Notes under the pieces: generated by a model
Seen by the model: only the letters and a program-made list of their open reading frames with translations
Databases searched by the model: none
Told to the model about the DNA's origin: nothing
Position numbers and translations under genes: made by a program
In this document: in pieces, positions 1,137 through 10,987 of the stretch
Layout of the letters: every line of letters starts with the position of its first letter
How positions within the stretch are numbered: position 1 is the stretch's first letter
Virus record (IMG/VR): IMGVR_UViG_3300021057_000009
Span: 1-42,306 of that record
Length of the DNA: 42,306 nt
Strand: one strand, 5' to 3'
Source of the DNA: a virus

Positions 1137-1256
1137 GTGAACACGCAACTAATTATCGAGGAAATGGAGCGACTTTATCGCCTCTACTCTGCGGGCGCTC
1201 TTACCTGGGAGGAATTAAGAGGAAAGATTAAAGATCTCTTGAGGGGGGCCGAATGA
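1137..1256 (+). CDS. Hypothetical 39-aa protein (GTG start)
   Basis: Own translation: VNTQLIIEEMERLYRLYSAGALTWEELRGKIKDLLRGAE. Its stop overlaps the next start (ATGA). There is no clear SD. Confidence 0.3.
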   Translation: MNTQLIIEEMERLYRLYSAGALTWEELRGKIKDLLRGAE

Positions 1257-1348
1257 GGGAGACTTTGGCTTTAGCTTTGATTGTATGGGTTATGGCGGGT
1301 TTCTTCCTCGGTATTGAAGCGCTCATAGCATTGGTTGGGAATTTCTAA
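1253..1348 (+). CDS. Hypothetical 31-aa hydrophobic peptide (single TM)
   Basis: Own translation: MRETLALALIVWVMAGFFLGIEALIALVGNF. SD GAGGGGGG lies 4-5 nt upstream. It overlaps both neighbours by ATGA/TAATG. Confidence 0.4.
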   Translation: MRETLALALIVWVMAGFFLGIEALIALVGNF

Positions 1349-1485
1349 TGGGTCGCTATCGCCTATTATTCCTTTCGCCTGTCATGCAGGGAATGTATCA
1401 GGATTTGAGGAGGATTGGTTTTTCTAAGCGGCAAGCAGTGGACATGGTTAGGCGAGTGTTTCATTTTGAGGAGGTGACGCTTTGA
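1348..1485 (+). CDS. Hypothetical 45-aa protein
   Basis: Own translation: MGRYRLLFLSPVMQGMYQDLRRIGFSKRQAVDMVRRVFHFEEVTL. It has TAATG coupling to the previous ORF. Confidence 0.35.
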   Translation: MGRYRLLFLSPVMQGMYQDLRRIGFSKRQAVDMVRRVFHFEEVTL

Positions 1486-1619
1486 GCAATAGAGTTTATG
1501 CGAAGGTTTTGATCTTGCTCAATTATGTAGACGAGCATGAGTTGGACAGGAAAAAGGAAGTGAAGGTTACCGAGTTGATTGATGAAATTTGGCGAGTGAT
1601 TGAGCGGAGGAAGGGTTAA
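1482..1619 (+). CDS. Hypothetical 45-aa protein (TTG start)
   Basis: Own translation: (L)SNRVYAKVLILLNYVDEHELDRKKEVKVTELIDEIWRVIERRKG. SD GAGGAGG lies 7 nt upstream of the TTG. Confidence 0.4.
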   Translation: MSNRVYAKVLILLNYVDEHELDRKKEVKVTELIDEIWRVIERRKG

Positions 1620-1654
1620 CGAGTGAGTTATGCGCAAATACAAGGGGGCGAGTG

Positions 1655-1828
1655 ATGTTGATCGACTTCAAATGCGGTCACGCCGTGGACATTAAGAGCG
1701 AAGGCGCAATTAAGATTGCGCTCTTAGGTGCTGGCCGGTGTCCTGATTGCTCTATTAAGAGGCGCAAGAGCGTAGCCGGTCAGCGTATGAATAGGTTTCA
1801 TGCCGGGAAATCAAAGCGTAAGGGCTAG
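1655..1828 (+). CDS. Hypothetical 57-aa Cys-containing basic protein (zinc-ribbon-like)
   Basis: Own translation: MLIDFKCGHAVDIKSEGAIKIALLGAGRCPDCSIKRRKSVAGQRMNRFHAGKSKRKG. SD AAGGGGG lies 6 nt upstream. Confidence 0.4.
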   Translation: MLIDFKCGHAVDIKSEGAIKIALLGAGRCPDCSIKRRKSVAGQRMNRFHAGKSKRKG

Positions 1829-1851
1829 TAAGGCTTAAGGGGATCTTTTAG

Positions 1852-1865
1852 GCGCCTTACGGCGC
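1852..1865 (-). repeat. GC-rich hairpin element (family copy)
   Basis: The minus strand reads CCTTTC-CGCGCC-GTAA-GGCGCC-TAAAAG. 5-bp stem, 4-nt loop. Confidence 0.6.
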
Positions 1866-1878
1866 GGAAAGGCACGAA

Positions 1879-2073
1879 ATGACCAATTGCACGATTCACG
1901 TTGAGCGGGTTGAGGGCCAGCAAGCCTATTATGCGGACGGCAAGTGTGAGCATGGCCGCACTATCGGAATCGGTCAGAATATCGGCCTTACTCGCCGCCA
2001 AGCCTATTTCCTCGCTTGGAAGGCTCTTAACGAGGAATGCGGCAAGAAACACGCTTGGGGATTTGACAGATAA
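1879..2073 (+). CDS. Hypothetical protein, 64 aa
   Basis: ORF track entry. SD GAAAGG lies 6 nt upstream. The overlapping alternative frames look less protein-like. Confidence 0.5.
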   Translation: MTNCTIHVERVEGQQAYYADGKCEHGRTIGIGQNIGLTRRQAYFLAWKALNEECGKKHAWGFDR

Positions 2074-2109
2074 ACAAAAACCCGCCGCCTAGCTGTAACT
2101 AGGGGCGGG
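2071..2109 (-). terminator. Intrinsic-terminator-like hairpin oriented for minus-strand transcription
   Basis: Arms 2081-2092 (cccgccgcctag) and 2099-2109 pair over 11 bp with one bulged G, with loop ctgtaa. On the minus strand it is followed by TTTTTGTTTA. On the plus strand no T-run follows. Confidence 0.5.
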
Positions 2110-2142
2110 GTAAACAAGGCCAACTAAGAAGGAGTTAGCCCA

Positions 2143-2793
2143 ATGGATACATTAGCACATGAAATCGAGACTTTCAGAGAGAAATTACGCGCTATGGGAT
2201 GCGCTCACTATTCCATTAACGGAATGGACGAGGATACAAGCATCAAGCGAGCGATTGCGGAAAAGTGGTCTTTCTTCTTTGTTTGTGTTCGCGACCCGTA
2301 CCACGCTATGAAGAATAAGAGCGCAAACTCAATCCGTTTTCGCCTGTTTCCTACGGTGAAAGAATCGCCTTCTATTCCCATGGGCTATACCGGCTGTCCC
2401 ATGTTTGCTTTCGAGTGTTTCGACGGTGAGCCAATGAAGAAAGCAATTTCGGAGATTAAGAAGCGTGTTAAAAGCGAGTATACATACAAGATCGAGGACG
2501 ATTTAATCACTTGTTACAAGGTGGTACCGGACACCGAAAAGCGCGTTAAGGTGGCCTATCTTATGGACGCTAAAGAAGGCGAAAAGGCGGTCTGTTACTG
2601 GACTAGCTCAAACCGTCAGTTTAGGGGCGCTTGTGAGGTTGTCCGAGTCAATGCGGCAACATATCGCGTTCGGTTGCTGGAGGCGGTCAAACAGGAGGAC
2701 GGATACGGCGGGTTTATCGAGTATCCGGTAGGGCGTGAATTGGTGATACCGAGGACGAAACAAACGCAGTTTAACTGCTTGGCGGTGGCCTAA
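2143..2793 (+). CDS. Hypothetical protein, 216 aa
   Basis: Long ORF with SD AAGGAG 8 nt upstream. I recognise no motif. Confidence 0.75.
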   Translation: MDTLAHEIETFREKLRAMGCAHYSINGMDEDTSIKRAIAEKWSFFFVCVRDPYHAMKNKSANSIRFRLFPTVKESPSIPMGYTGCPMFAFECFDGEPMKKAISEIKKRVKSEYTYKIEDDLITCYKVVPDTEKRVKVAYLMDAKEGEKAVCYWTSSNRQFRGACEVVRVNAATYRVRLLEAVKQEDGYGGFIEYPVGRELVIPRTKQTQFNCLAVA

Positions 2794-3155
2794 TGACTAC
2801 TAAAGGGGATATGGGCGGCTTCGCCGCGAAAACAAAGGACACGACGATGCACACGCCAGGCCCGTGGGGATTCGACGTAATTAAAGACGAGGCGGGGATA
2901 CCGGACGAGTACGTTGTATACGGTAACCATCCCTCAGACTTGGACGAAATAGCGGATATCAAATACTCCGAGGTCGAGGGGAGACAGAGAGCGAATGCGG
3001 CTCTTATTGCGGCGGCTCCTGAGCTTTTAGAGGCGCTTAAGGTGGCGCGAGAATGGATGGGAAGCGATGCGCCTAAGTACCAAAATGGGGCGCATGTTCT
3101 AAAAGACGCTCAAAAACTGGTTGATAGAGTAATTTCCAAAGCCGAGGGCGTATGA
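2793..3155 (+). CDS. Hypothetical phage protein with TPGPW and ANAALIAAAPELLEALK motifs, 120 aa (possible later start at 2847)
   Basis: ORF track entry with TAATG coupling to the previous ORF. The alternative ATG at 2847 follows a family hairpin (2815-2827) and AAAGGA. Confidence 0.7.
   Translation: MTTKGDMGGFAAKTKDTTMHTPGPWGFDVIKDEAGIPDEYVVYGNHPSDLDEIADIKYSEVEGRQRANAALIAAAPELLEALKVAREWMGSDAPKYQNGAHVLKDAQKLVDRVISKAEGV
2815..2827 (-). repeat. GC-rich hairpin element (family copy)
   Basis: The minus strand reads TGTTTT-CGCGGC-GAA-GCCGCC-CATATC. 5-bp stem, 3-nt loop. Confidence 0.6.
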
Positions 3156-3277
3156 CTATCCATCTAAAAGACGTTTACGAGGCGCGTTTTCACGCGCAAG
3201 ATCGGGGGAGCTTGGTGTTATTCTATGCTTTGGCGGGATTGGCGCGGCAGTTACAGCGGGAAAGGTGGGGATTGTAA
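3152..3277 (+). CDS. Hypothetical 41-aa protein
   Basis: Own translation: MTIHLKDVYEARFHAQDRGSLVLFYALAGLARQLQRERWGL. ATGA overlap with the upstream stop. Its stop abuts the next ATG. Confidence 0.4.
   Translation: MTIHLKDVYEARFHAQDRGSLVLFYALAGLARQLQRERWGL
3182..3197 (-). repeat. GC-rich hairpin element (family copy, 6-nt loop)
   Basis: The minus strand reads GATCTT-GCGCG-TGAAAA-CGCGCC-TCGTAA. 5-bp stem. Confidence 0.5.
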
Positions 3278-3496
3278 ATGGAGATAGTCATCACATCGGC
3301 GGCGGTCAATAAAAAGGCCGCTGGAACGATTAACGGGCAAGCGTTCGAGGCATACTGGCATTGGAACGGCAGGGCCAGCCAATCGGGTACATGGCGAAAT
3401 AGCCTCCGTTTTAAACTGTCGCCAGCCGAGAATCAAGCTATCGGCAGGGCAATAAAAAAGTATCTTGCGCCCAAAGGCGCTAATAAGGGGGTTTAA
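3278..3496 (+). CDS. Hypothetical protein, 72 aa
   Basis: ORF track entry. SD AAAGGTGGGG lies 7 nt upstream. Confidence 0.55.
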   Translation: MEIVITSAAVNKKAAGTINGQAFEAYWHWNGRASQSGTWRNSLRFKLSPAENQAIGRAIKKYLAPKGANKGV

Positions 3497-3497
3497 T

Positions 3498-3620
3498 ATG
3501 GGCGCGATTTTGGTACGGATCAACAATGACAAATGCGAGATTGAGAACGCGAAGCAATTGGGCGAAGTGATTCTCTCATACCTTGAGGATGGTCCTGTTA
3601 AGGTGGAAAGGTTTGATTGA
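3498..3620 (+). CDS. Hypothetical 40-aa protein
   Basis: Own translation: MGAILVRINNDKCEIENAKQLGEVILSYLEDGPVKVERFD. SD AAGGGGG lies 6 nt upstream. Confidence 0.4.
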   Translation: MGAILVRINNDKCEIENAKQLGEVILSYLEDGPVKVERFD

Positions 3621-3643
3621 TGAGCGCCTGAAAGACGCACCCC

Positions 3644-3799
3644 GTGAAAGAGTGTAAGCACGAAAGCACGTTGGCGGCGCATGAGTTTGAAGGCCGCTAT
3701 TGGATGGCGGAATGGATTCCAGCAGATCGGATCGTATGCGTAGTTTGTAATGAGGTAGTTAGCTTGGTTTCCAAAAGAAAAGCGATTCGTGATGAGTAG
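3644..3799 (+). CDS. Hypothetical 51-aa Cys-containing protein (GTG start)
   Basis: Own translation: VKECKHESTLAAHEFEGRYWMAEWIPADRIVCVVCNEVVSLVSKRKAIRDE. There is no convincing SD. Confidence 0.25.
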   Translation: MKECKHESTLAAHEFEGRYWMAEWIPADRIVCVVCNEVVSLVSKRKAIRDE

Positions 3800-3805
3800 T
3801 ATTTC

Positions 3806-3820
3806 GCGGGTGAAACCCGC
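3806..3820 (+). repeat. GC-rich hairpin element (family copy, plus orientation)
   Basis: The plus strand reads GTATTT-CGCGGGT-GAA-ACCCGCC-CAAAGGAG. 6-bp stem, GAA loop. Confidence 0.6.
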
Positions 3821-3875
3821 CCAAAGGAGCCTTTGAAATAGAGAGAGGCAGTTCCAAACCAAAGGAGGAGGCGCA

Positions 3876-4106
3876 ATGCATCCATTTGTAAAAATCAATG
3901 TGACAGTAATAATTAATGCGACTGAAGCAGCCGTAATTCAGGAGAATACGATTCTCACAAAAGAGGGCTGGAGAAAAGTCGGCGCTGTTATTATGAAGTC
4001 AGGTAAAGAGTATGAGTCCAATCTATCCTTCCAAGAATTGGAGAGTTTAATCATTAAAGCTCTCCCCCCTCCTAGCTCGGATGATCCTGTAAGAATTAAA
4101 CTCTAG
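3876..4106 (+). CDS. Hypothetical protein, 76 aa
   Basis: ORF track entry. SD AAAGGAGGAGG lies 5 nt upstream. Confidence 0.55.
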   Translation: MHPFVKINVTVIINATEAAVIQENTILTKEGWRKVGAVIMKSGKEYESNLSFQELESLIIKALPPPSSDDPVRIKL

Positions 4107-4260
4107 TTAGTTCTCAGCGGTAGATTATGTTAGACAGGTGTTAGATAGTGCATGAGTGAACTTTGGTTAACTCTTGTAACTTATTGATAATTAGAGAGAA
4201 GCGAATACAAGATTATCTCACTCCCCAGATTTTGTGCATCTAATTTCCTATTGGAGCGTG
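4107..4260. other. Candidate attP region (convergent gap next to int, TGTTAGA repeats)
   Basis: Non-coding gap between convergent genes, immediately 3' of int. gttaga occurs at 4129-4134 and 4140-4145, with further copies inside the int 3' end. Confidence 0.3.
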
Positions 4261-5460
4261 TTAGGAGTTAGTGTCTTTTGAGAGATAGTTAACCGGAAAG
4301 TTACCCTTATTGGTGGAGGGTGTTTCGGAGTGTTTTGTTAGATGGTTGTTAGATGGCTTTTTGGTATCTAACAATTGGTCTAGTTTGTGAGGGCCGGGAC
4401 GATGGCGCATGAGGTGAGCGTAAGTGTCCATGGTGATTTTGAAGGAGCCGTGACCGAGTTGTTCTTGGAGGTATTTGAGGTCTTTGAGTTCGAGACCGGA
4501 TTCCAACATGAGCGAGGCGTAGGTATGGCGTAGGCCGTGGAGAGGGATTCTCGGGAGACCGGAGGATTCTTGGTATTCCCAGAGTTTCATTAGTAGGTGT
4601 TTACGGTCATAAGGAGTGCCGTTACGGGTACTGAAAATTAGCTCATGAGGGTTTTCATGGGCCGTTATGAGATGGATTTGAAGAGATTCTCTTACGAGTT
4701 TAGGCATGTCTACTCGTCTTGTGCTGCTATGGGATTTGGGTATGGCAAAGTACCAACGAGATTTGTTCTGATCTAGTTTTTTAACATGCCAGCACACTTG
4801 GCGCTGGATTCTGATCTGATTCTCCTCCCAGTCGATATCCCCTTTTTGGAGTCCTGTTAGTTCTCCTACTCTTAGACCGAGCATGCCCATTGTGAGAAAC
4901 ATGGTGCGCCAGGGTTCATCGGATTTGGAGAGGAGGAGTTGGAATTGTGAGACTGAGTAGAAGGCACTGGGAGTAGGGTGATGTTTCTCCCTTATGATGT
5001 GCGATACCGGGTTCTCATGGGTCAGGCCCATACGGATGGCGTATTTAAAGACGGATGAAATTGTGTCCAGCATCTGGTTATTAGCGCGTGTATGTTGCAG
5101 CCGCCGCGCTGATTGGCGAAGTTTCTCAATGAGTTGAGGTGTGATTTTATTAAGTTTCAAATGGCCTATGACTGGATAGGCATACTTTTCTAATCGAAGT
5201 TTGTAGCTAATGTGAGTAGAAGGCTTGAGAGTAGAGAGGACTTCAGAGAGATAATTTTGCGCGACTCCTTGAAATGTTAAACGAGTATCAGGGTCATAGT
5301 AGCCCTTCGTATGGAGACTTGATAGGACTTTGGTAAGTAATATGTCGGCATCGTGTTTCCTGGAACCGGCAGAGATCCACTTCTGCTTATTGGATTCTCT
5401 GTAGACGATGAAATAGACGGGACCAGATTTGGTGAGTCTTCGGACTATTGAGCCTCGCAT
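4261..5460 (-). CDS. int: Tyrosine recombinase / phage integrase
   Basis: 399 aa. Catalytic signature GLRVGEL (Arg), HGLRHTYAS (His-x-x-Arg), LGHGS..TMDTYAH (His, Tyr nucleophile). Confidence 0.9.
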   Translation of the reverse strand: MRGSIVRRLTKSGPVYFIVYRESNKQKWISAGSRKHDADILLTKVLSSLHTKGYYDPDTRLTFQGVAQNYLSEVLSTLKPSTHISYKLRLEKYAYPVIGHLKLNKITPQLIEKLRQSARRLQHTRANNQMLDTISSVFKYAIRMGLTHENPVSHIIREKHHPTPSAFYSVSQFQLLLSKSDEPWRTMFLTMGMLGLRVGELTGLQKGDIDWEENQIRIQRQVCWHVKKLDQNKSRWYFAIPKSHSSTRRVDMPKLVRESLQIHLITAHENPHELIFSTRNGTPYDRKHLLMKLWEYQESSGLPRIPLHGLRHTYASLMLESGLELKDLKYLQEQLGHGSFKITMDTYAHLMRHRPGPHKLDQLLDTKKPSNNHLTKHSETPSTNKGNFPVNYLSKDTNS

Positions 5461-5648
5461 GGTGATCCATTGTAGGACTTTGATTTGAAGGAGGCAAGGA
5501 CTTCAGAGACATCAAAGCGAAGGTAGCGGCCTACTTTGAGGTGGGGGATTGTGCGGATGTGGTCGTAGATCCATGATGGGGAAACGGAGAGGATTTGGGA
5601 GAGTTCGTCTACTCCTATGTACTTGGGGAGGTTTGTTTGGGGATTCAA
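5445..5648 (-). CDS. xis: Excisionase-family HTH protein
   Basis: 67 aa. The LSVSPSWIYDHIRTIPHLKVGRYLRFDVSEV pattern fits MerR/excisionase HTH_17. It overlaps the int start. Confidence 0.7.
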   Translation of the reverse strand: MNPQTNLPKYIGVDELSQILSVSPSWIYDHIRTIPHLKVGRYLRFDVSEVLASFKSKSYNGSPCEAQ

Positions 5649-6007
5649 TTGGACTCCTTGAGTAAATGAGGATGTTCGTAGATGTTGCCGAGGACTTCGA
5701 CCTCTTTGGAGATGACGAAGAAATCGAGGTCATCCGCTTCGGCGTGGGATAGCATGAATCTCGCTTCGTCAAAGGTCACGAAGCTGACTTCGCGCCCGCA
5801 CTCGTCTTGCCAGTAGCGCGATAGCTTGATGACATCCCCCTCCCAGATCTCCTTCCCATTCTTGTCGTGGAGGCCGGTGAACTGACTCCACTCAAAATCT
5901 TCGACATCCGCCGCGTACCAAGTGTCATCCAAGAAATCTGCAAGCGAGTAATAAAGCCATTCCTTTTTGGTCTTGTGCCACGCCCTAAACTTAATCGGTC
6001 TATTCAC
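5645..6007 (-). CDS. YopX-family protein (paralog 1)
   Basis: 120 aa. IKFRAW..., TGLHDKNGKEIWEGDVIK and VLGNIYEHPHLL are YopX hallmarks. GTG start. Confidence 0.8.
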   Translation of the reverse strand: MNRPIKFRAWHKTKKEWLYYSLADFLDDTWYAADVEDFEWSQFTGLHDKNGKEIWEGDVIKLSRYWQDECGREVSFVTFDEARFMLSHAEADDLDFFVISKEVEVLGNIYEHPHLLKESN

Positions 6008-6147
6008 TCCCCCTCCTTTGTTGATTTAGGCGGCTGAGGCCGCGAATCACGTTCAAAATTTTGCATAATTCCGTACAAACCAAATCCGAAAGCCGCACCA
6101 CTAAAAAATCCAAAACCAAACAAAACCAAATTAGCTTCCTGGCTCAT
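6004..6147 (-). CDS. Small membrane protein, 47 aa (internal ATG of the 68-aa track ORF)
   Basis: MSQEANLVLFGFGFFSGAAFGFGLYGIMQNF... has one TM segment. ATG 6147 overlaps the upstream TGA (ATGA). Confidence 0.5.
   Translation of the reverse strand: MSQEANLVLFGFGFFSGAAFGFGLYGIMQNFERDSRPQPPKSTKEGE
6030..6043 (-). repeat. GC-rich hairpin element (family copy)
   Basis: The minus strand reads GTGATT-CGCGGC-CTCA-GCCGCC-TAAATC. 5-bp stem, 4-nt loop. Confidence 0.6.
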
Positions 6148-6704
6148 TTCGCCTCGTCCTTCCCATCCCCGCCGCCTAGAAGATCGTCTAGTTTGGAGAG
6201 GGCAAACCAAAACCGCTCCCTGGCTTTTAAAGCACCGACTATGTAGCTTGTCGTATAAGAGCGCCGCTCTACCTCGGCTTTGAGAATCTCCTCATCGTGC
6301 TTTTTAAGTTGCTCGTCCCAAGTTCTCGCCCATCCGATAACCGCTTCTTTGGCTTCTAAGACAGGGGTATAGGCGGGCGTTGCCCGCGAAAGGGCTAGGG
6401 CTTCGCATATAGGGCAAGGGGAGAACGTTTCCTCCCGGTAGCAGGGTCCGTAGTGATGCCCGGTTTCGTCAGTATTGAGCTTTAGCGCCTCGGTGAGCTT
6501 CCCTATGAGGAAGTCTTTTTTGGCGGCTTCGCCGCGAAGAACCTCAACCTCTTTTCTTGCGTCTCGGAGTTCTGCCCTCACGGAAGGCTGTGCCGCCAGT
6601 GAGGCGGTGAGGCGTAGGTTCTCCGAAACGAGTTTGCGGCACTCGTCACGGAGCATGGCCTCAGTCATCATGTCGATCTGGTCGGGATACGGCTCTTGCA
6701 TCAT
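6144..6704 (-). CDS. Hypothetical coiled-coil protein, 186 aa
   Basis: ORF track entry, coupled to its neighbours by 4-nt overlaps. Confidence 0.7.
   Translation of the reverse strand: MMQEPYPDQIDMMTEAMLRDECRKLVSENLRLTASLAAQPSVRAELRDARKEVEVLRGEAAKKDFLIGKLTEALKLNTDETGHHYGPCYREETFSPCPICEALALSRATPAYTPVLEAKEAVIGWARTWDEQLKKHDEEILKAEVERRSYTTSYIVGALKARERFWFALSKLDDLLGGGDGKDEAK
6373..6387 (-). repeat. GC-rich hairpin element (family copy, intragenic)
   Basis: The minus strand reads CCCTTT-CGCGGGC-AAC-GCCCGCC-TATACC. 6-bp stem. Confidence 0.55.
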
Positions 6705-7042
6705 GGTCGATAGCTCCCATCGCCTTCGTTAAGTGCTTGATCGAGTGTAGGGCAACGCTTGAGCCGTTCGTTCTCCGCGCGAAGCGCCTTCAATTCATCA
6801 AGCTTGCGCTTAAGAACGTCAACCGCTCCTTCGCTTTGGCCTGTCTCGCCGACGTGATCCATCAAGAGGACACAAAGTTCGTTTGATAACTGGCTGTCTT
6901 TGCGTAGGTGTTCGATCTCCTTGTCTTTGGAGGCGAGTTGGGCGCATAGCTCATCAATCTCTTCTTGGTAACACGCCGAACAGGGTTGCGGTTGATACGC
7001 CACCTTTGGATGCGGGCAGTGCTTCGAGGAACGGTATTCCAT
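6701..7042 (-). CDS. Hypothetical coiled-coil/Cys-containing protein, 113 aa
   Basis: ORF track entry with overlapping start/stop with its neighbours. Confidence 0.65.
   Translation of the reverse strand: MEYRSSKHCPHPKVAYQPQPCSACYQEEIDELCAQLASKDKEIEHLRKDSQLSNELCVLLMDHVGETGQSEGAVDVLKRKLDELKALRAENERLKRCPTLDQALNEGDGSYRP
6777..6787 (+). repeat. Weak GC-rich hairpin (possible family copy)
   Basis: The plus strand reads CCGCGC-GAA-GCGCC. The stem is only 4 bp. Confidence 0.3.
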
Positions 7043-7290
7043 TACTTCCCTCTCTTCTTTGTGGGTTTATGGGCGTCCTTCGGACGCGGAAGAACCGGAC
7101 GAATTTCAACTTCTACAAGGTCAGCCATGAAACCCCATCCATCCCAATCTTTCAAGGCATTCTCTTTTCTGAAATAAATGGTTCTTAGCTTTCCAGAGAA
7201 CCAATCTTCGCCATCTGACATGAGAGGAACCAATCCATCCGGTCTTCTTGCACAAACCGCCCACGCCTTAATAGCCTTCTCCTTCTTCAT
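7042..7290 (-). CDS. Hypothetical protein, 82 aa
   Basis: ORF track entry with ATGA overlap with the upstream YopX gene. Confidence 0.6.
   Translation of the reverse strand: MKKEKAIKAWAVCARRPDGLVPLMSDGEDWFSGKLRTIYFRKENALKDWDGWGFMADLVEVEIRPVLPRPKDAHKPTKKRGK
7073..7087 (-). repeat. GC-rich hairpin element (family copy)
   Basis: The minus strand reads GTTCTTC-CGCGTCC-GAA-GGACGCC-CATAAA. 6-bp stem, GAA loop. Confidence 0.65.
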
Positions 7291-7685
7291 GGGGTGTCCT
7301 TGGGCGTGGCTTCGCCACGCGAAAGCAATTCAGGGTTTTCGTAGATGTTCCCGAGAACTTCTATGCCAGCGGTATTCTCACCGCACCAAAATTCAGACTC
7401 GAAGCACCCGCCCCTGAACTCAACAACTGCGATCCGTTCGGCTATTTTTCCGTTCGGATTCATTAGGCTAGATTTCAGGAAGTGCTTAAGAATATCCCCC
7501 TCCCAAATCTCCTTGCCGTTCTTGTCGAGGAGGCCCGTCCAGAAAACTACTTTGTAGTGAGGCGCGGCCTTCGATGATTTGCCTCCTACGACAAACTCTA
7601 AATCTCCGAGACCGTTCATATGACAGTCCATTGGGTGCATCCAGCATTTCAGAGATTCGTTCCAGAACCTGAACTTCGGTCTCAT
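7287..7685 (-). CDS. YopX-family protein (paralog 2)
   Basis: 132 aa. PKFRFW, TGLLDKNGKEIWEGDILK, VLGNIYENPELL. Confidence 0.8.
   Translation of the reverse strand: MRPKFRFWNESLKCWMHPMDCHMNGLGDLEFVVGGKSSKAAPHYKVVFWTGLLDKNGKEIWEGDILKHFLKSSLMNPNGKIAERIAVVEFRGGCFESEFWCGENTAGIEVLGNIYENPELLSRGEATPKDTP
7304..7320 (-). repeat. GC-rich hairpin element (family copy)
   Basis: The minus strand reads TGCTTT-CGCGTGGC-GAA-GCCACGCC-CAAGGA. Perfect 7-bp stem, GAA loop. Confidence 0.7.
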
Positions 7686-7688
7686 CCC

Positions 7689-7874
7689 CTACTCCTCTTT
7701 GGGTGCTTTAGGCGCGTTCCGCGCAACGATAACTTCACCTTTCCGATCAAGTCGGTACTCCTTGCAGTACAAGCAAACCAAGTACTCGTCCTCGACGTAT
7801 CCAGAGCCATCGTCAAAGAGCACCGTCCGACCAGACGGGATTATCGGCGGTACGAAATAGTGGCTACAGCTCAT
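7689..7874 (-). CDS. Hypothetical small Cys-containing protein, 61 aa
   Basis: ORF track entry with 4-nt overlap with the upstream gene. Confidence 0.5.
   Translation of the reverse strand: MSCSHYFVPPIIPSGRTVLFDDGSGYVEDEYLVCLYCKEYRLDRKGEVIVARNAPKAPKEE
7712..7724 (-). repeat. GC-rich hairpin element (family copy)
   Basis: The minus strand reads ATCGTT-GCGCG-GAA-CGCGCC-TAAAGC. 5-bp stem, GAA loop. Confidence 0.6.
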
Positions 7875-8179
7875 TCCTTATCCCTAGTAGTGGGTCCAGG
7901 CGTCCCTTCGGGCCGCGAAAGAGCTTCACGGGCTACGGTTTCCGGGCAATCGCAGTAGCGGTTATGAGCCGCGCCATAACAGCCAGGAATTGCCTCATTA
8001 GCGATCTTCTCCAACGCCTCCCGTAGACGTTTGTTCTCCTGGCACAATTCGTGAAAGTCTGCATCGTCGTAGTACCGCTTCTCTGCCCCATCGTCCTTAA
8101 GGAGCTTGCAGATGGCGGCGAGGGTTCCACCGATCTTCTTGTTCTCCATGCGTAGGATCTCGGCTGTTAGGTCGCTCAC
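7871..8179 (-). CDS. Hypothetical protein, 102 aa
   Basis: ORF track entry. GTG start preceded by AAGAGGGA. Confidence 0.6.
   Translation of the reverse strand: MSDLTAEILRMENKKIGGTLAAICKLLKDDGAEKRYYDDADFHELCQENKRLREALEKIANEAIPGCYGAAHNRYCDCPETVAREALSRPEGTPGPTTRDKE
7900..7916 (-). repeat. GC-rich hairpin element (family copy)
   Basis: The minus strand reads CTCTTT-CGCGGCCC-GAA-GGGACGCC-TGGACC. 7-bp stem with one G-A mismatch. Confidence 0.65.
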
Positions 8180-8565
8180 GATTCCCTCTTAGTTTCTTTG
8201 GGCGATTTCAGCGCGATAATTGCAGAAAAGATCGACTCGTGTTGGCAGATGTCTAGCGCGTTTGATTCCAGCTTGTCTGCTAATTCTGCCGCCTCTTGTA
8301 AGGCTTCTTCCCTTCCTTTTTGGTGGGCGGATTGTAGGCGCTCTGCGAGCGCAAGAACAAGATCATTGTTTTGGAAGCAAAGCTCGTTCGTTGTGTAGCC
8401 TTTGTAGTTCCCAAGATTGCATGAACGACAACTCCAGGTCTTACATTCAAGACAGTCACATACACAGACGTTGGCATCTGCGGCCAATAGAATCTCCCTC
8501 GCCTCTTTCATGTAGGGTATGGGCGCGAAGGGGTCAGGTAAGGGTGGAAATGGCTTTTGCTTCAT
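8176..8565 (-). CDS. Hypothetical Cys-rich protein, 129 aa
   Basis: ORF track entry containing the CVCDCLECKTWSCRSC cluster. Confidence 0.6.
   Translation of the reverse strand: MKQKPFPPLPDPFAPIPYMKEAREILLAADANVCVCDCLECKTWSCRSCNLGNYKGYTTNELCFQNNDLVLALAERLQSAHQKGREEALQEAAELADKLESNALDICQHESIFSAIIALKSPKETKRES
8338..8352 (-). repeat. GC-rich hairpin element (family copy, intragenic)
   Basis: The minus strand reads GTTCTT-GCGCTC-GCA-GAGCGCC-TACAAT. 6-bp stem. Confidence 0.55.
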
Positions 8566-8936
8566 TTCCCGCCCCTCGTCTCAAAGTAGGAGAAGGCGGC
8601 TTTGGCGCAGTGGCGATAGTGTTCTTTGCTTCCAGGCCCAAGATTTTCCCAAAGACTATCGGTTCCAGTGGCAGGGTACAGATACAACACCTTGGCTAGT
8701 TCTTCTATTGGGTCTTGGGGGCGCGGTTCAAGTCCAAGGATTAATGAAATATCTAATGGCATAAGGCGCTGCTTGCGTCCCAGTCCCCACAGCTCAACAG
8801 CCTTGTCTTTAAGCCAGTCGATGAGAATCTTGTCGGCTCTCACATCACCGCCAAAACCATGAAAACAATGCGATTTACTAAGCTCTTCGGTGAGCGGGTG
8901 CATCATTACTCTCCTTTTAGGATCTATGGGCGTCAC
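8562..8936 (-). CDS. Hypothetical protein, 124 aa by track (likely starts at ATG 8906)
   Basis: The track start is GTG. The ATGATG at 8906 is preceded by AAAAGGAG. Confidence 0.6.
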   Translation of the reverse strand: MTPIDPKRRVMMHPLTEELSKSHCFHGFGGDVRADKILIDWLKDKAVELWGLGRKQRLMPLDISLILGLEPRPQDPIEELAKVLYLYPATGTDSLWENLGPGSKEHYRHCAKAAFSYFETRGGK

Positions 8937-8946
8937 TTCGTGCCGC
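8930..8946 (-). repeat. GC-rich hairpin element (family copy)
   Basis: The minus strand reads GATTTA-CGCGGCAC-GAA-GTGACGCC-CATAGA. 7-bp stem with a G-A mismatch at the same position as copy 7900-7916. Confidence 0.65.
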
Positions 8947-8951
8947 GTAAA

Positions 8952-9086
8952 TCACTTCGGTTTTTCGATAAGCTGTACTGTTACTCGCACCGAATCGTAC
9001 CCATTCAGGCGCATCCAAACCGAGAACCAGAGACAAAACGCGCCCAACAAACCCAGGATTAGGCCAACAACCAACAACTTACTCAC
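8952..9086 (-). CDS. Small membrane protein, 44 aa (GTG start inside the 72-aa track ORF)
   Basis: VSKLLVVGLILGLLGAFCLWFSVWMRLNG... has one TM segment. The longer track ORF would overlap the ligase gene by about 50 nt. Confidence 0.4.
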   Translation of the reverse strand: MSKLLVVGLILGLLGAFCLWFSVWMRLNGYDSVRVTVQLIEKPK

Positions 9087-9117
9087 TCTTCTTTCTCTTC
9101 TTTCCTTTTGAGGACAT

Positions 9118-9741
9118 TTAGGCGCTCCGCGCGGGTAAGGCTTTGCTTTTCGGCATTTCGTCTTTCTCAATGGTTTTCTTGAAGCCCACGTTTCCTTGTG
9201 TGTGAAAAACCACGATTCCTTCGGGCTTCATAAAGCCGGGGGCCGCGACACTCCCGCCAACTTTCAGTAGTTCTAGACATTCGTCGATCTTCTGCGTGTC
9301 GAACACGCCCCGATACAGAACGGGTACTAGCGAACAGCCTTCCGGTAGGCGGTCCTGGTACTTCTCGATACGGGGATCTTGCGTCTCAATACGCTTCGGT
9401 TCCTCGTTTGGAAGACACCACCGAACGACGTTGAAGAGGCTCCAACGCTTCTCGCCTTTTGGGAGTCCGTACCCACGCTGGCAACCGCTTCCCCACCACT
9501 CCCCGAAGTGATGCCCGGGCCCTAGCTTCATAAGCTCGTCACGGCGGGTATAGGCCCAGGCCGCGAAGCCGTAGTTATCCTTCTCCGGGGTAATCCATTG
9601 GGTACGGCTACCGCAAAGGAAAGTGCCGTCCTCTCCGATGTAGACCGAGGCGTTCGTACCGTCGATCTTCTCAGTAACGATAATCTCCCTGGAAAGCCTA
9701 GCAATTTTCGGAAACTCCCTGAACTCCACTTCCTTCCCCAT
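9118..9741 (-). CDS. ATP-dependent RNA-ligase-like nucleotidyltransferase (minimal domain)
   Basis: 207 aa. Motif I EKIDGTN (KxDG), motif III-like HHFGEWWG, motif IV-like PEGIVVF, motif V-like GFKKT. Confidence 0.7.
   Translation of the reverse strand: MGKEVEFREFPKIARLSREIIVTEKIDGTNASVYIGEDGTFLCGSRTQWITPEKDNYGFAAWAYTRRDELMKLGPGHHFGEWWGSGCQRGYGLPKGEKRWSLFNVVRWCLPNEEPKRIETQDPRIEKYQDRLPEGCSLVPVLYRGVFDTQKIDECLELLKVGGSVAAPGFMKPEGIVVFHTQGNVGFKKTIEKDEMPKSKALPARSA
9122..9132 (-). repeat. Weak GC-rich hairpin (family copy, 4-bp stem)
   Basis: The minus strand reads CCTTACC-CGCGC-GGA-GCGCC-TAAATG, at the ligase stop codon. Confidence 0.35.
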
Positions 9742-9758
9742 ACCTTAAGCTCCTTTAG

Positions 9759-9772
9759 GCGCCTGACGGCGC
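9759..9772 (-). repeat. GC-rich hairpin element (family copy, intergenic)
   Basis: The minus strand reads GTTTTAC-CGCGCC-GTCA-GGCGCC-TAAAGGAG, followed by the ligase ATG. Confidence 0.6.
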
Positions 9773-9780
9773 GGTAAAAC

Positions 9781-10086
9781 TTAAAGTTCTAATTCCCCAC
9801 CGATCAATTGAATCGCCTGAATCGCCGCTTCCAGCTTGTCCACGTTCGTCCTAATATTACCGACCACAGCGGACGAGACGGGGGTAGGGGCTACCTGTTC
9901 ACCACACCCCGGAATTGAACGCTCGACTCGAAGTGGGCGAAGCTTCTCAAAATGACTCTGAAGCGCCTCCATGAGACGATCCGTAGTTCCCGTTAGTCTG
10001 GATAACTGATTGGACAATTCGGTGCTGTTATTGCTCGGTAAAGCCGTCTTTGCGTTGCTTAACTGACCGTTCTGGTACATATCCAC
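9781..10086 (-). CDS. Hypothetical protein, 101 aa by track (likely ATG at 10080)
   Basis: ORF track entry. AAGGGGG lies upstream of the ATG at 10080. Confidence 0.6.
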   Translation of the reverse strand: MDMYQNGQLSNAKTALPSNNSTELSNQLSRLTGTTDRLMEALQSHFEKLRPLRVERSIPGCGEQVAPTPVSSAVVGNIRTNVDKLEAAIQAIQLIGGELEL

Positions 10087-10120
10087 CCCCTTGTTATCCC
10101 CCTCATAACTACTCCTCCAG

Positions 10121-10133
10121 GCGGCTTCACCGC
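10121..10133 (-). repeat. GC-rich hairpin element (family copy)
   Basis: The minus strand reads TTTTTAA-CGCGGT-GAA-GCCGCC-TGGAGGAG. The fifth pair is G-U, which is possible only in minus-strand RNA. Confidence 0.6.
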
Positions 10134-10356
10134 GTTAAAAACTGGGCCTTCTCTCAGGCTGTCACGCCTTGTTTTACAGGGTCGCCGCGTTCCGCTGGCT
10201 TCGGCTTTTTACTGGCCGATCCGATCCTCCCCCGACCATACCTGTCGATATGGACCCGGTTCTCTGTGCCGAGTATGGGCGCGACCCCATCAGTTTCCTG
10301 TCCACGTTGCCGCCTAACCTTGTTAGGTCTCTCCGTGAAACTCGGCATTCTCTTTC

Positions 10357-10374
10357 GCGGCCCGTTAGGGACGC
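10357..10374 (+). repeat. GC-rich hairpin element (family copy, plus orientation)
   Basis: The plus strand reads CTCTTT-CGCGGCCC-GTTA-GGGACGCC-CAGAAT. Arms are identical to copy 7900-7916. Confidence 0.6.
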
Positions 10375-10514
10375 CCAGAATTAAGTATTACCGCCATACG
10401 ATCCCTCTCCAAATCCCTGTCATAATTCACCCCATCGACCCACCACACAGTGATTAGAAATACAACTAACAAACCTGTCAGGATGAACCAGATACGATTC
10501 TCTGTATCAATCAT
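10365..10514 (-). CDS. Small membrane protein, 49 aa
   Basis: Own translation: MIDTENRIWFILTGLLVVFLITVWWVDGVNYDRDLERDRMAVILNSGRP. ATGA overlap with the DUF3310 stop. One TM segment. Confidence 0.4.
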   Translation of the reverse strand: MIDTENRIWFILTGLLVVFLITVWWVDGVNYDRDLERDRMAVILNSGRP

Positions 10515-10899
10515 TCTCAATCTCACTAATAAGACGGGTCAGATACCACTGAGCCTTTTTCAAATCCTCCACAGGATGCTCCTTGTGTTGATAACGCCAG
10601 AGGTATTTGAGAATGTTTCCTTGTAAGTAAGCAGCAAACCCATCGACACCTACAGCGGATTTGATCGCCTCGATGCATTCAATCCCCCCCTGGGTGTAGT
10701 GAGCAGGGTGATTCACTCGATCTAAATTCTCGGTTTGTTCCGAAAGAAGATGAGGACAAGGATCGCAAACATGATCCACACTGTCAGGGTTAAGATTGTT
10801 TGATGTAGAATTCCCATACAGGGATTCGCTTGCATCCTTTGATGTCACAGTTTTCAGGCTCCTCACACGTATCCCATTGACCAGACTTAACCTTTTCAA
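10507..10899 (-). CDS. DUF3310-family protein (start uncertain)
   Basis: The C-terminal VNHPAHYTQGGIECIEAIKSA...LQGNILKYLWRYQHK...DLKKAQWYL matches the remembered DUF3310 pattern. The N-terminal ~36 codons overlap the upstream ORF. Confidence 0.7.
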   Translation of the reverse strand: MKRLSLVNGIRVRSLKTVTSKDASESLYGNSTSNNLNPDSVDHVCDPCPHLLSEQTENLDRVNHPAHYTQGGIECIEAIKSAVGVDGFAAYLQGNILKYLWRYQHKEHPVEDLKKAQWYLTRLISEIEND

Positions 10900-10987
10900 C
10901 TAAAGTTCGATGATGCTCACAGATTAGGTATCTAGTGCCTATGCTCAGTTCCAACCTCTGTTTAGACAATCGCTGAATGGGGGACAT
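10790..10987 (-). CDS. Hypothetical Cys/His-containing protein, 65 aa
   Basis: ORF track entry with TAATG coupling to the upstream 40-aa ORF. Confidence 0.45.
   Translation of the reverse strand: MSPIQRLSKQRLELSIGTRYLICEHHRTLVEKVKSGQWDTCEEPENCDIKGCKRIPVWEFYIKQS

Follow-up and report, generated by a model that had tools for sequence, protein, structure and literature searches.

A covarying GC-rich mini-hairpin repeat at gene junctions in the accessory region of an uncultured temperate phage

The genome of one uncultured temperate phage (IMGVR_UViG_3300021057_000009; the window analysed is this whole 42,306-nt stretch) contains a GC-rich mini-hairpin repeat at the joints between small accessory genes. 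When every GCG-stem-loop-stem-CGC hairpin was enumerated with a script, we recovered all the copies quoted in the initial annotation, and the tally now stands at 18 solid copies plus 2 weak ones (Table 1). All lie within 1852-10374, an accessory 8.5 kb made up of two accessory-gene blocks either side of int/attP, which is indeed more GC-rich than the remainder, as first noticed (G+C 0.48-0.54 vs ~0.46-0.48). The repeat has the form (T-rich)-C-GCG-[1-4 variable pairs]-[G-N(1-2)-A loop]-CGC-C-YAWA, with an invariant GCG/CGC hairpin base bordered by unpaired C...C, and its core of ~13-21 nt is embedded in a looser ~50-nt context. Finer features reported initially were also seen, including GAA in nine loops (we counted 9-10), identical arms in c7900 and c10357, a G·T(U) wobble on the minus strand of c10121, and a G·A mismatch shared by c7900 and c8930, which lies at the first variable pair and is present in c10357 too.

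Table 1. Copies of the mini-hairpin repeat, the empty site and the weak candidates (copies named by first position; score from the covariance model).
Feature	Position	Strand	Sequence	Bits	Context
c1852	1852-1865	-	GCG-CC-GTAA-GG-CGC	22.3	Intergenic; 23 nt past stop of gene 1655-1828 (+), 13 nt ahead of ATG 1879 (+); complement of T-rich flank (GGAAAGG) acts as SD
c2815	2815-2827	-	GCG-GC-GAA-GC-CGC	23.3	22 nt past stop of 2143-2793 (+), 19 nt ahead of ATG 2847 (start backed by PHROG match); contains d(GCGAAGC)
c3182	3182-3197	-	GCG-CGT-GAAA-ACG-CGC	13.9	Weaker member; 122-nt gap between genes 2793-3155 and 3278-3496 (+), within uncalled 41-aa ORF
c3806	3806-3820	+	GCG-GGT-GAA-ACC-CGC	22.4	Sense; 6 nt past stop of ORF 3644-3799 (+), 55 nt ahead of ATG 3876 (+)
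c6030	6030-6043	-	GCG-GC-CTCA-GC-CGC	20.1	Final codons of ORF 6004-6147, 22 nt ahead of YopX#2 GTG 6007
c6373	6373-6387	-	GCG-GGC-AAC-GCC-CGC	20.7	Internal, in frame, ORF 6144-6704; peptide ALSRATPAYTP
c6523	6523-6535	-	GCG-GC-GAA-GC-CGC	18.8	Internal, in frame, ORF 6144-6704; peptide VLRGEAAKKD; left arm is end of homology to L110 protein P0002
c7073	7073-7087	-	GCG-TCC-GAA-GGA-CGC	23.3	Final 31 nt of ORF 7042-7290, 30 nt ahead of ATG 7042
c7304	7304-7320	-	GCG-TGGC-GAA-GCCA-CGC	29.1	Filled site
c7712	7712-7724	-	GCG-CG-GAA-CG-CGC	18.9	Final codons of ORF 7689-7874, 26 nt ahead of YopX#1 ATG 7685
c7900	7900-7916	-	GCG-GCCC-GAA-GGGA-CGC	29.7	Final codons of ORF 7871-8179, 25 nt ahead of ATG 7874
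c8202	8202-8214	-	GCG-CT-GAA-AT-CGC	19.4	Degenerate member, C·T mismatch at position of the G·A copies; final codons of ORF 8176-8565, 22 nt ahead of GTG 8179
c8338	8338-8352	-	GCG-CTC-GCA-GAG-CGC	17.6	Internal, in frame, ORF 8176-8565; SD-like AAAAAGGAAGGGAAG next, without start codon
c8930	8930-8946	-	GCG-GCAC-GAA-GTGA-CGC	29.5	Intergenic; 26 nt ahead of ATG 8903; then TAAAAGGAGAG
c9122	9122-9132	-	GCG-C-GGA-G-CGC	17.1	Contains GCGGAGC
c9759	9759-9772	-	GCG-CC-GTCA-GG-CGC	24.1	Intergenic; 8 nt past stop of 9781-10080, 17 nt ahead of ATG 9741; adjoined directly by CTAAAGGAG
c10121	10121-10133	-	GCG-GT-GAA-GC-CGC	13.4	Intergenic; then CTGGAGGAG
c10357	10357-10374	+	GCG-GCCC-GTTA-GGGA-CGC	32.7	Inverted vs leftward operon; mRNA strand continues GAAAGAGA-ATG (ORF 10154-10348)
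Empty site	5645-5670	-	TACGAACATCCTCATTTACTC / AAGGAGTCCAATTGA		YopX#2 3' end; hairpin missing exactly where YopX#1 has c7304
Weak candidate	~3032-3049	-	CGCG-CCACCTTAAG-CGCC	16.9 (E 0.0017)	Within gene 2793-3155; stem short, loop long
Weak candidate	9294-9308	+	GCG-TGT-CGA-ACA-CGC-C	12.2 (E 0.085)	Within ligase gene

As described initially, most copies precede a start codon, by 8-50 nt, and adjoin a Shine-Dalgarno (SD) sequence, and several coincide with the final codons of the preceding ORF. As many as four copies are contained in ORFs, three of them in called genes and one in an uncalled ORF. Since ORFs cross and translate the element in all three frames, the "SR.E.TP" tails pointed out previously, which do recur, represent just one frame of a nucleotide-level element. 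The only paralogs among the hairpin-flanked ORFs are the two YopX genes, which suggests that the repeat spread independently of genes. The placement would also suit an element whose role is solely in translation or stability, every non-internal copy, in either orientation, being just 5' of an SD and a start codon.

We quantified enrichment with a strict motif (GCG, 1-4 bp extension, loop of 3-4 nt, CGC-C). In positions 1-10500 there are 21 matches, and in 300 dinucleotide shuffles, a control suggested in the initial annotation, hairpins are far fewer (2.2 ± 1.6, maximum 8). In contrast, the single match in 10501-42306 is at chance level (1.6 expected), and a covariance model trained on the copies and run with filters off gives zero matches at E<1 beyond 10.4 kb, in keeping with the failure to find copies by eye in the other ~32 kb. 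Covariation was measured on a structure-anchored alignment of the copies, in which 96.1% of cells are paired vs 77.1 ± 2.8 after shuffling, a level reached in 0 of 500 shuffles, and both sides have changed in 19 alignment cells vs 6.1 ± 1.8. As a control, offsetting the partner by 1-3 columns leaves 22-53% paired. The compensating changes reported at the stem apex are thus borne out as covariation at the variable positions. These findings show that the repeat family is real, non-random and covarying, a dispersed structured element, as originally proposed, and no set of chance palindromes. The stem interior exists in 13 variants among the 18 copies, differing in almost every copy yet nearly always paired, a diversity more readily explained by lasting selection for structure at the individual loci than by recent selfish spread.

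How the repeat may have arrived is suggested by the two YopX genes, YopX#1 (7287-7685) and YopX#2 (5645-6007), which share the C-terminus ...GNIYE(N/H)P(E/H)LL. In YopX#1, c7304 is a 21-nt in-frame insert, TCGCGTGGCGAAGCCACGCCC, which comes after the conserved ...YENPELL and is followed by AAGGA (the SD of the next gene)...ATGA. In YopX#2, CTC directly abuts AAGGAG...TTGA, leaving an empty site at ~5650-5665. Judged from this comparison, which is one clean pair of paralogs in which gain and loss are indistinguishable, the repeat core is a discrete insertion. The T-rich and YAWA flanks, initially considered conserved parts of the element, are at least partly pre-existing target and not wholly element, the flank in the YopX case being Leu codons plus SD, i.e., pre-existing sequence. 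Elsewhere, c9122 encodes the final codons (...ALPARSA-stop) of an RNA-ligase-family gene (9118-9741), and this tail extends past the end point of six homologs.

For 16 of the 18 copies, the element strand, defined as the strand with the G..A loop, is the minus strand (binomial p ~0.001), which corrects the earlier figure of 14 of 17. Orientation had been equated with the sense strand of the leftward early operon. However, the rightward-transcribed block contains four copies, of which three (c1852, c2815 and c3182) are on the minus strand and hence antisense to their local genes, while still lying just upstream of start codons, and c10357 is locally antisense as well. Repeat orientation therefore tracks the DNA strand rather than transcription, although the bias could alternatively come from lytic transcription running leftward through the rightward block.

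The loops obey the DNA mini-hairpin rule of C-G-closed GNA/GNNA loops, known from GCGNAGC/GCGNNAGC (PMC13037366). G-N(1-2)-A loops are found in 15 of 18 copies and a C-G closing pair in 13 of 18, and only two of the four GNNA tetraloops follow the RNA GNRA rule. In the three copies with a G·A mismatch, the element strand is more stable by 2.0-2.4 kcal/mol (DNA parameters).

Several known systems were considered. The resemblance to boxB-type sites suggested initially does not hold, and a nut/boxB system was rejected because loops are 3-4 nt instead of 5, a boxA-like GCUCUUUC accompanies only two copies, and the leftward operon opens with a gene for a Cro-like HTH protein, no N-like protein having been found. 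Promoters were rejected since no sigma-70-like hexamers are associated with the copies, and terminators since the copies lack T-runs. Membership tests placed the repeat outside N4 hairpin promoters, PeSL and SAS. They also placed it outside REP/RAYT, although it resembles REP elements in behaviour. No mobilising enzyme for the repeat was detected among the phage ORFs by Pfam and HUH motif scans, which counts against a REP-like origin: no scanned ORF has a Pfam match to a Y1/HUH transposase, and an HUH motif is missing from all ORFs of 80 aa or more.

Relatives whose Sak4-like (AAA_24) protein, terminase large subunit and portal are 50-73% identical lack the family, as do 80 ligase-sharing loci, and the covariance model gives zero matches at E<0.05 over 1.38 Mb of such loci. 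When IMG/VR, GTDB genomes and JGI metagenomes were scanned for the pattern, the matches listed were singletons, and no host genome with the repeat is among them, which is weak evidence against a REP-like origin. By these searches, the family is lineage-specific, being absent from every relative and collection examined, and it matches no described family.

Among the roles proposed initially, a REP-like one is best supported, by the filled and empty YopX sites and the ligase extension, and further by copies in both orientations, in-frame copies in ORFs and absence from relatives. Our preferred reading, to which we give somewhat less than an even chance, is that of a lineage-specific REP-like miniature palindromic element that proliferated at the joints between genes and gives rise to intercistronic hairpins in the mRNA. 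The repeat probably spread by copy and paste, and this multiplication would have taken place within the accessory blocks flanking int/attP. New copies would have landed at the pyrimidine-rich/purine-rich joint right upstream of ribosome-binding sites, a few of them in frame within ORFs; insertion elsewhere would destroy a gene, which would explain why survivors are at gene junctions. When single-stranded, the core on one DNA strand may fold into a compact hairpin recognised by a putative copying or recombination machinery. Recognition of the folded strand would account for the conservation of strand, base, closing pair and loop alongside a free stem interior. Transcription of the operon would then turn each copy into a mostly GC-paired hairpin of 4-7 bp located 0-15 nt ahead of the following SD, where its most likely effect would be that of an intercistronic decay barrier, a processing guide or a ribosome-binding-site insulator. 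In mRNA context, 11 of the 18 hairpins have a pairing probability >0.7.

The hairpins form a single family whose number and pairing exceed anything produced by shuffling. An exhaustive listing of hairpins of the type GCG-stem-loop-stem-CGC recovered all 17 copies counted by the initial annotation, although the total is now 18 solid members and two weak ones, each named here by the start of its hairpin (c1852, c7304 and so on). The strict motif occurs 21 times in positions 1-10500, compared with 2.2 ± 1.6 (maximum 8) in 300 dinucleotide shuffles, but just once in the remaining 31.8 kb, where 1.6 are expected. The proposed confinement to the early/accessory region is therefore upheld, and generic GC hairpins show the same trend, with 2.0 per kb in 1800-10400 vs. 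0.1-0.7 per kb elsewhere. When run with filters off, a covariance model scored the 18 copies at 13-33 bits and found nothing at E<1 past 10.4 kb. In an N-padded, structure-anchored alignment, 96.1% of the cells are paired, as against 77.1 ± 2.8% after shuffling (0/500 shuffles as high) and 22-53% in register-slid controls. Changes on both sides of a pair affect 19 cells, as against 6.1 ± 1.8 in shuffled alignments (again 0/500 as high). Since closer relatives are absent from the searched collections, this covariation is throughout between paralogous copies of one genome. The shuffles, the covariance model and the pair counts rule out chance palindromes and bear out the earlier reading of a non-chance structured element.

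All copies share the form (T-rich)-C-GCG-(1-4 variable pairs)-(3-4 nt loop)-CGC-C-YAWA, the core measuring 13-19 nt. Every copy keeps the GCG/CGC base and the 3' C, and the 5' C is found in 14/18. Stems are 4-7 bp long, while loops have 3 nt in 13 copies and 4 nt in five. Fifteen of the 18 loops read G-N(1-2)-A, with GAA in ten and GGA, GCA, GTAA, GAAA, GTCA or GTTA in others. The closing pair is C-G in 13/18 and has a pyrimidine on its 5' side in 17/18, and only two of the four GNNA tetraloops match the RNA GNRA rule. The rule that a G-N(1-2)-A loop is closed by C-G is that of the DNA mini-hairpins d(GCGNAGC) and d(GCGNNAGC), which are hyperstable, and a 2026 review places them at the G4 priming site, RSF1010 ssiA (CCGAAGG) and the N4 early promoters (GCGGAGC) (PMC13037366). 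Judged from sequence, the loop and closing-pair pattern of the copies is that of the DNA mini-hairpin rule. In post hoc tests of the flanks, we found T-richness at -6 to -1 in 17/18 copies (background 17%), GAAA at -27 to -12 in 8/18 (background 8%) and CCC at +6 to +15 in 8/18 (background 10%). The flanks are partly self-complementary, and a longer imperfect palindrome is predicted in 10/18.

The copies are also biased in strand. The G..A loop lies on the minus strand in 16/18 (binomial p about 0.001), a DNA-strand split of 16:2 vs. a local-transcription split of 14:4, to which the rightward block of small genes contributes four copies only. The initial annotation had equated this orientation with the sense strand of the leftward operon, which does not hold since three of the four copies in the rightward block are antisense to the local mRNAs and c10357 is inverted within the leftward operon. 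By predicted energies, G·A mismatches are tolerable only on the element strand, i.e., the one carrying the G..A loop; these copies excepted, nearest-neighbour energies fail to separate the two strands because the parameter sets hold no GNA bonus. Taken together, a strand bias across two opposed blocks, the mini-hairpin loop rule and element-strand-only G·A mismatches are most simply explained by recognition of the folded single DNA strand during copying.

A rival reading takes the copies for single-stranded DNA hairpins of the N4-promoter or ssi/G4-origin type, at which a hairpin-recognising RNA polymerase or primase would start. The anatomy of the N4, RSF1010 ssiA and G4 hairpins (a stem of 5-7 bp and a GGA/GAA or GNNA loop with C-G closure) is seen here, with ten GAA loops, one GGA loop and the C-G closing pairs, as are the literal strings GCGGAGC (c9122), CCGAAGG (c7073) and GCGAAGC (three copies). 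The strand asymmetry is shared too, and in the rightward block three of the four copies have the G..A-loop strand as template, 5' of a gene start. However, in 13 of the 14 leftward copies the coding strand is the one with the G..A loop, the wrong orientation for sense transcription in the main block, where N4-type initiation would yield antisense RNA. No RNA polymerase domain, whether of a hairpin-recognising virion enzyme or another, and no primase domain was found in the 42 kb, which encode a D5-type helicase only, whereas the known mini-hairpins have a dedicated polymerase or primase and number one to three sites per replicon, not 18. Both blocks already have good sigma-70 promoters, and priming signals would not be limited to 8.5 kb. 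We consider such promoters or priming sites very improbable.

That the core behaves as a discrete insertion is best seen by comparing the two YopX genes, whose products are 32% identical and share the C-terminus ...EVLGNIYE(N/H)P(E/H)LL. At the empty site, YopX#2 reads ...TTACTC / AAGGAGTCCAATTGA, which is the SD and overlapping start of the next gene, while at the filled site, which contains c7304, YopX#1 reads ...TTGCTT / TCGCGTGGCGAAGCCACGCCC / AAGGACACCCCATGA. The two differ by exactly the 21-nt hairpin core, in frame, by which the protein gains SRGEATP. In this case the T-rich and A-rich flanks were there beforehand, as Leu codons and the SD, and target preference may therefore lie behind some of the "conserved flank". 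The ligase repeats the pattern: it ends in ...PKSKALPARSA*, six homologs in ...PKSKKK*, ...PKSKQ* or a similar tail, and c9122 supplies the additional codons. Two further hairpins cut ORF 6144-6704 into three segments, with a decayed SD-like stretch after each, which suggests a fusion of once-separate cistrons. This 186-aa ORF has a mosaic look. Its residues 1-58 match (77%) a 105-aa protein, P0002, encoded at 10001-10318 of the related phage contig L110 and its sole database relative; the homology stops in the left arm of c6523, and the rest of the ORF has zero homologs among 5.8 billion proteins. Because the flanked genes are non-paralogous, the YopX pair excepted, the hairpins did not spread through gene duplication, and tandem duplication of gene-plus-hairpin units is excluded. 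Comparable insertions are the Rickettsia palindromic elements, which Ogata and colleagues are said to have described in 2000 as entering genes in frame and being tolerated as extra peptide segments. Unlike the phage hairpins, these are 100-150 bp long, chromosomal and unrelated in sequence.

Finding the same core beside some 18 unrelated genes in a single lineage calls for copy-and-paste, which the insertion evidence directly supports. Our leading explanation, which we put forward tentatively, is that a folded single DNA strand is recognised during copying, as in REP/RAYT or IS200-type systems. Once inserted, a copy would inevitably be transcribed as an intercistronic mRNA hairpin immediately before a ribosome-binding site, where an effect on the stability, processing or insulation of the mRNA would be likely. 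Like REPs and REPINs, the copies are short GC-rich imperfect palindromes at gene junctions, in either orientation, with conserved flanks, compensated stem variation, a hairpin on one DNA strand and insertion-like behaviour, and they are transcribed in operons, where such elements can stabilise upstream mRNA. They differ in having a core shorter than typical REPs (13-19 nt vs. 20-40), a density of ~2 per kb and a phage genome rather than a bacterial chromosome as their home. The REP signature GTAG/GTGG is lacking: the equivalent position is TWTRG, and GTAG occurs in 1/18, the tetranucleotides before GCG in the reverse reading being TTAG (five), TATG (three), TTGG (three), CCAG (two) and ATAG, CTGG, TTTG, CGAG and GTAG (one each). 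The scanned phage ORFs have no Pfam match to RAYT/Y1_Tnp or another transposase, and the H-U-H-U-U motif is absent from every phage ORF of at least 80 aa. The REP-like reading offered initially holds for the compensated palindrome, the insertion and the placement at junctions, but the defining REP traits looked for in the phage, GTAG and a RAYT/HUH gene, are missing. Nor are the copies attC-like: integron attC sites are bottom-strand hairpins of 57-141 nt with R/L boxes and extrahelical bases, arrayed beside an IntI-type integrase, vs. a core of 13-19 nt without an R-box (GTTRRRY) in the phage, whose integrase has an ordinary attP.

The placement of the copies bears on a purely RNA-based alternative. 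As the initial annotation had noticed for most copies, they stand just 5' of starts and SDs: all 14 non-internal copies lie 8-55 nt (one 80 nt) 5' of a start codon, in either orientation, with a purine-rich SD 0-15 nt on their 3' side. Quasi-palindromic flanks make this SD placement independent of orientation. Forward copies read hairpin-CYAAAGGAG and inverted ones hairpin-GAAAGG or hairpin-GAAAGAGA-ATG, where the purines are the complement of the T-rich flank. Eight leftward copies fall at the very end of the upstream ORF, in its last 4-31 nt, so that the overlap with last codons reported earlier is real, but the "SR.E.TP" tails attributed to it are excluded as a protein-level motif since all three frames are used and several copies are non-coding; the element is a nucleotide-level one. 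Promoters and terminators are excluded as well. Of the 25 promoter-like sites in 1-18000, none falls on a hairpin, and the copies have no sigma-70 hexamers; on either strand the T-run precedes the hairpin and an A-rich tract follows it, and the copies are absent from the terminator scan.

The main rival to copying of a folded DNA strand holds that the RNA role is why the family exists, i.e., that this is a purely cis-acting RNA element, with intercistronic mRNA hairpins kept by selection and spread by recombination between junctions through usefulness, not mobility. Such hairpins could act by endonucleolytic cleavage in the U-rich 5' flank, giving monocistronic mRNAs protected by a 5' hairpin, by blocking 3'-5' exonucleases, as do REP stabilisers and engineered intergenic hairpins, or by insulating the ribosome-binding site and aiding termination-reinitiation. 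This would account for the constant place of the non-internal copies, for the eight at ORF ends, where a terminating ribosome has just passed, and for covarying stems that have almost no unpaired cells though their interiors nearly all differ. Moreover, for 11/18 hairpins the predicted probability of forming in their mRNA context exceeds 0.7, the G·U pair of c10121 falls on the mRNA strand, and no copy has a T-run behind it that would terminate transcription. However, a bare hairpin leaves the GCG/CGC base, the unpaired C...C, the G..A loops and the C-G closure unexplained, and GNA triloops and GUCA/GUUA loops are not favoured RNA motifs. The four inverted copies, presenting UUC/UAAC-type loops and G...G flanks, should fail if recognised as RNA, yet they occupy the same place relative to the start. 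Up to four copies are inside ORFs with no start downstream, and 5/15 junctions of the same block are hairpin-free, as are all ~12 among the replication genes situated upstream in that operon. Sequestration of the SD by the C-rich 3' flank is not consistently predicted. An RNA role as the reason for the family is possible, but we consider it rather unlikely.

The hairpin family is lineage-specific. Relatives were fetched by shared proteins: the ligase yielded 80 loci, the terminase 18, the Sak4-like AAA_24 protein L111-L116 and ORF 6144-6704 L110, and the family was found in none. Relatives that have the recombination, replication and structural core in common with the phage, at 50-73% protein identity and on contigs of ~40-45 kb, lack the hairpins, and the accessory genes too are absent except for one syntenic pair in L110. 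In the 80 IMG/VR loci with the ligase the hairpins were not found, and the covariance model had no match at E<0.05 over 1.38 Mb of ligase-sharing loci. Hairpin linkers are likewise missing from over 200 contigs that encode homologs of flanked genes (ligase, YopX, DUF3310, PF27050). Pattern scans gave nine matches in IMG/VR, all singletons in unrelated contigs, and at least 120 in GTDB genomes, where the matches listed are singletons in unrelated taxa and include no host REP family. A stricter consensus pattern gave 24 singletons in unrelated contigs of the JGI metagenomes, near chance expectation. No fetched locus has three or more strict copies besides L108 and L109, which are copies of the same phage contig. 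An Rfam search of 1-11500 with E up to 5 returned one spurious match only, which disposes of a known RNA family, and no tRNA-related candidate emerged. A single look-alike, GCCCTTTC-GCGG-GGT-CCGC-TATG, is found in an intergenic spacer of L110, a distantly related JGI metagenome phage (5563-5573, minus strand of the locus). It agrees with c6373 over 12 nt of 5' flank and stem, and may be either a coincidence or a vestige of the family outside this phage.

Hairpins in plastic regions might instead be recombination linkers for the shuffling of ORFans, with a micro-homology or structure-prone break point at which the Sak4-like AAA_24 protein, the PD-(D/E)XK nuclease and RusA swap genes. The model would be the PeSL cassettes of T4-type phages, which combine a strong sigma-70 early promoter with a terminating stem-loop (PMC2839356, PMC4122927). 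PeSLs are likewise repeated intergenic stem-loop cassettes, present by the dozen in hyperplastic regions 5' of ORFans, and their ends are formed by the SD and start of the gene that follows; they undergo modular exchange, and one PeSL crossover was mapped to the loop. In the phage, the copies are confined to two ORFan-rich plastic blocks beside int/attP, the homology of ORF 6144-6704 ends within a hairpin, and that ORF and ORF 8176-8565 resemble segment fusions split by hairpin cassettes. This is, however, the single homology break point observed, and what the copies share is a very short core that varies from one to another, a poor substrate for homologous exchange. Since the contigs with homologs of flanked genes are linker-free, these genes did not arrive with linkers. 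Unlike PeSLs, the phage copies lack promoter hexamers and a U-tract, conserve the hairpin base and loop itself, and occur in both orientations and inside ORFs. Recombination linkers therefore strike us as improbable.

A conserved loop, closing pair, base and flanks around a variable interior are also the usual signature of recognition by a protein, and the hairpins might be operator sites for a phage-encoded hairpin-binding regulator, whether a translational repressor or activator (T4 RegA, Mu Com), a nut-like antitermination system or an extruded-DNA roadblock (L5 stoperators). Some 18 sites at gene starts of the non-structural region would be in keeping with stoperators or with the SAS/ESAS of Cluster K mycobacteriophages, which number 11-19 copies per genome in the non-structural part only; in some of the genes, SAS directly precedes the start codon, and half of the copies have an upstream inverted repeat at a variable spacer (PMC3203893). 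SAS, however, is a 13-bp asymmetric sequence of the GGGATAGGAGCCC type that includes the SD, has nearly one orientation and is found cluster-wide, and ESAS arms are conserved in sequence. The phage hairpins have a different sequence, arms that covary freely, the SD outside the core, four inverted copies and relatives without the family. With lambda/P22 nut sites they have in common small GC hairpins, a purine-rich loop beginning with G, a 5' pyrimidine-rich tract and the early leftward operon of a temperate phage, and the initial annotation had drawn this parallel. The parallel fails, since loops have 3-4 nt instead of the 5-nt GNRA-like loop of boxB, and stems 4-7 bp instead of a fixed 5 bp. 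BoxA (CGCUCUUA / GCUCUUUA) is approached only in c7900 (GCUCUUUC) and c10357 (CUCUUUC), immediately 5' of the hairpin, other copies being merely U-rich; nut sites number one or two per operon near the promoter, not 18 with some inverted. No N-like arginine-rich antiterminator, which nut sites require, was found at the operon start, where the first ORF reads as a Cro/HTH-like protein.

Several small Cys-rich or basic ORFans among the hairpins are candidates for such a regulator, but they are without any family match. Variable stem length leaves the loop-to-base distance unfixed, inverted copies would show an RNA-binding protein another loop and other flanks, orientation is not tied to transcription as it is in stoperators, and relatives with the same regulatory and replication core lack the family. 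We judge regulator sites unlikely. They nevertheless rank first among the remaining rivals, ahead of PeSL-like linkers and, last, hairpin promoters or priming sites.

Beyond known systems, the recognised object might be a strand-specific hyperstable DNA mini-hairpin in a new DNA-level system, which we regard as doubtful. In one version, this may be the smallest known self-propagating palindromic element, 21 nt long, in a phage, moved via single-stranded DNA. In another, the phage may regulate or recombine by reading extruded, C-G-closed GNA/GNNA hairpins at some 18 gene starts, which, if true, would carry the N4 hairpin-recognition principle past promoters. A mobile family would be an unusually small palindromic repeat multiplying inside a virus, and would offer a direct view of accessory genes gaining C-terminal tails, in-frame insertions and fusions. 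If functional in RNA, it would be a compact natural "intergenic part" through which one operon organises how a dozen ORFans are expressed. The hairpins follow a short sequence rule, C-GCG-stem-GNA-stem-CGC-C, and mark the plastic part of a phage lineage without cultured relatives, and their orientation touches the general question of whether repeats are selected as RNA or as DNA.

The genome carrying the family (see table), that of an uncultured temperate phage, is complete and circularly assembled, with an exact 127-nt terminal overlap (1-127 and 42180-42306) and a unique length of ~42,179 bp. The same sequence emerged independently from two data sets, ENA ERZ27252493 and Logan SRR7004167, each at 100% identity to it and with no population variants between them. 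GenBank phages gave zero matches to 1-12000 by megablast or to the portal by tblastn, and an integrase search of IMG/VR gave none either. The largest encoded protein has 770 aa. The TGTTAGAT clusters adjoin and overlap the 3' end of the integrase gene; from the sequence, this arrangement is the layout of attP arm-type integrase-binding sites, and the attP core is probably between 4150 and 4330.

Main features of the phage genome outside and around the hairpins
Feature	Coordinates	Strand	Basis or remark
CI/S24 repressor	16651-17370	+	Pfam
Leftward-operon promoter	16560-16531		TTGACA-18-TAAAGT
DPBB_1 protein	15818-16246	-	second gene of the leftward operon
Small-gene run (leftward block)	10.9 to 5.6 kb; integrase 4261-5460	-	last members HTH_17 excisionase-like gene and tyrosine integrase
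Ligase	9118-9741	-	RNA_ligase (PF09414)
YopX#1	7287-7685	-	filled site, with c7304
YopX#2	5645-6007	-	empty site
attP arm repeats	4128-4374		five TGTTAGAT (four direct, one inverted), two clusters ~200 bp apart
Rightward small-gene block beyond attP	926-4106	+	own good sigma-70 promoters 829-857 and 890-918
Palindrome CAAAGG-AG-CCTTTG	3821-3836		directly 3' of c3806
Intrinsic terminator	2069-2110	-	between rightward genes 1879-2073 and 2143-2793
Sugar-modifying enzyme cluster	30611-34321	-	Glyco_trans_1_2 protein, Methyltransf_24 protein, 443-aa GT2-methyltransferase fusion, weak Anp1-like match
SU10-type portal and adaptor	window		Pfam
D5-type helicase, PD-(D/E)XK nuclease, Sak4-like AAA_24 protein, RusA	window		Pfam

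The hairpin-bearing blocks (1-11000) exceed most of the genome in G+C by 2-6 points (0.48-0.54 vs. 0.45-0.48), a contrast already noticed by eye; since the hairpins are too small to explain the excess, this suggests that the accessory blocks came from a G+C-richer source. The ligase, 207 aa long, consists of the nucleotidyltransferase domain and nothing else. It has at least 128 relatives in IMG/VR phage contigs that are otherwise unrelated, the best 80 at 47-71% identity, a scatter that marks a widely travelling accessory gene. In the palindrome following c3806, the SD-like AAAGGAG pairs with its own complement, and a two-codon mini-ORF (TTG AAA TAG) comes next, before the real SD and start of gene 3876-4106. 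The intrinsic terminator is a strong one for leftward transcription, with an 11-12 bp stem, CCCGCCCCUAG/CUAGGCGGCGGG, then UUUUUGUUU (-23.6 kcal/mol, z -3.0), and no T-run on the plus strand; it would halt read-through from int/attP heading to the terminase genes. Past the leftward promoter, the first ORF encodes, by sequence reading, a 77-aa Cro-like HTH protein, and the next a protein that looks secreted and has a DPBB_1 (lytic transglycosylase/RlpA-like) domain, an odd operon slot for a wall-acting enzyme. The sugar-modifying enzyme cluster lies within the virion-structure module, an unusual place, and modification of virion or host-surface glycans is one possibility for its role.
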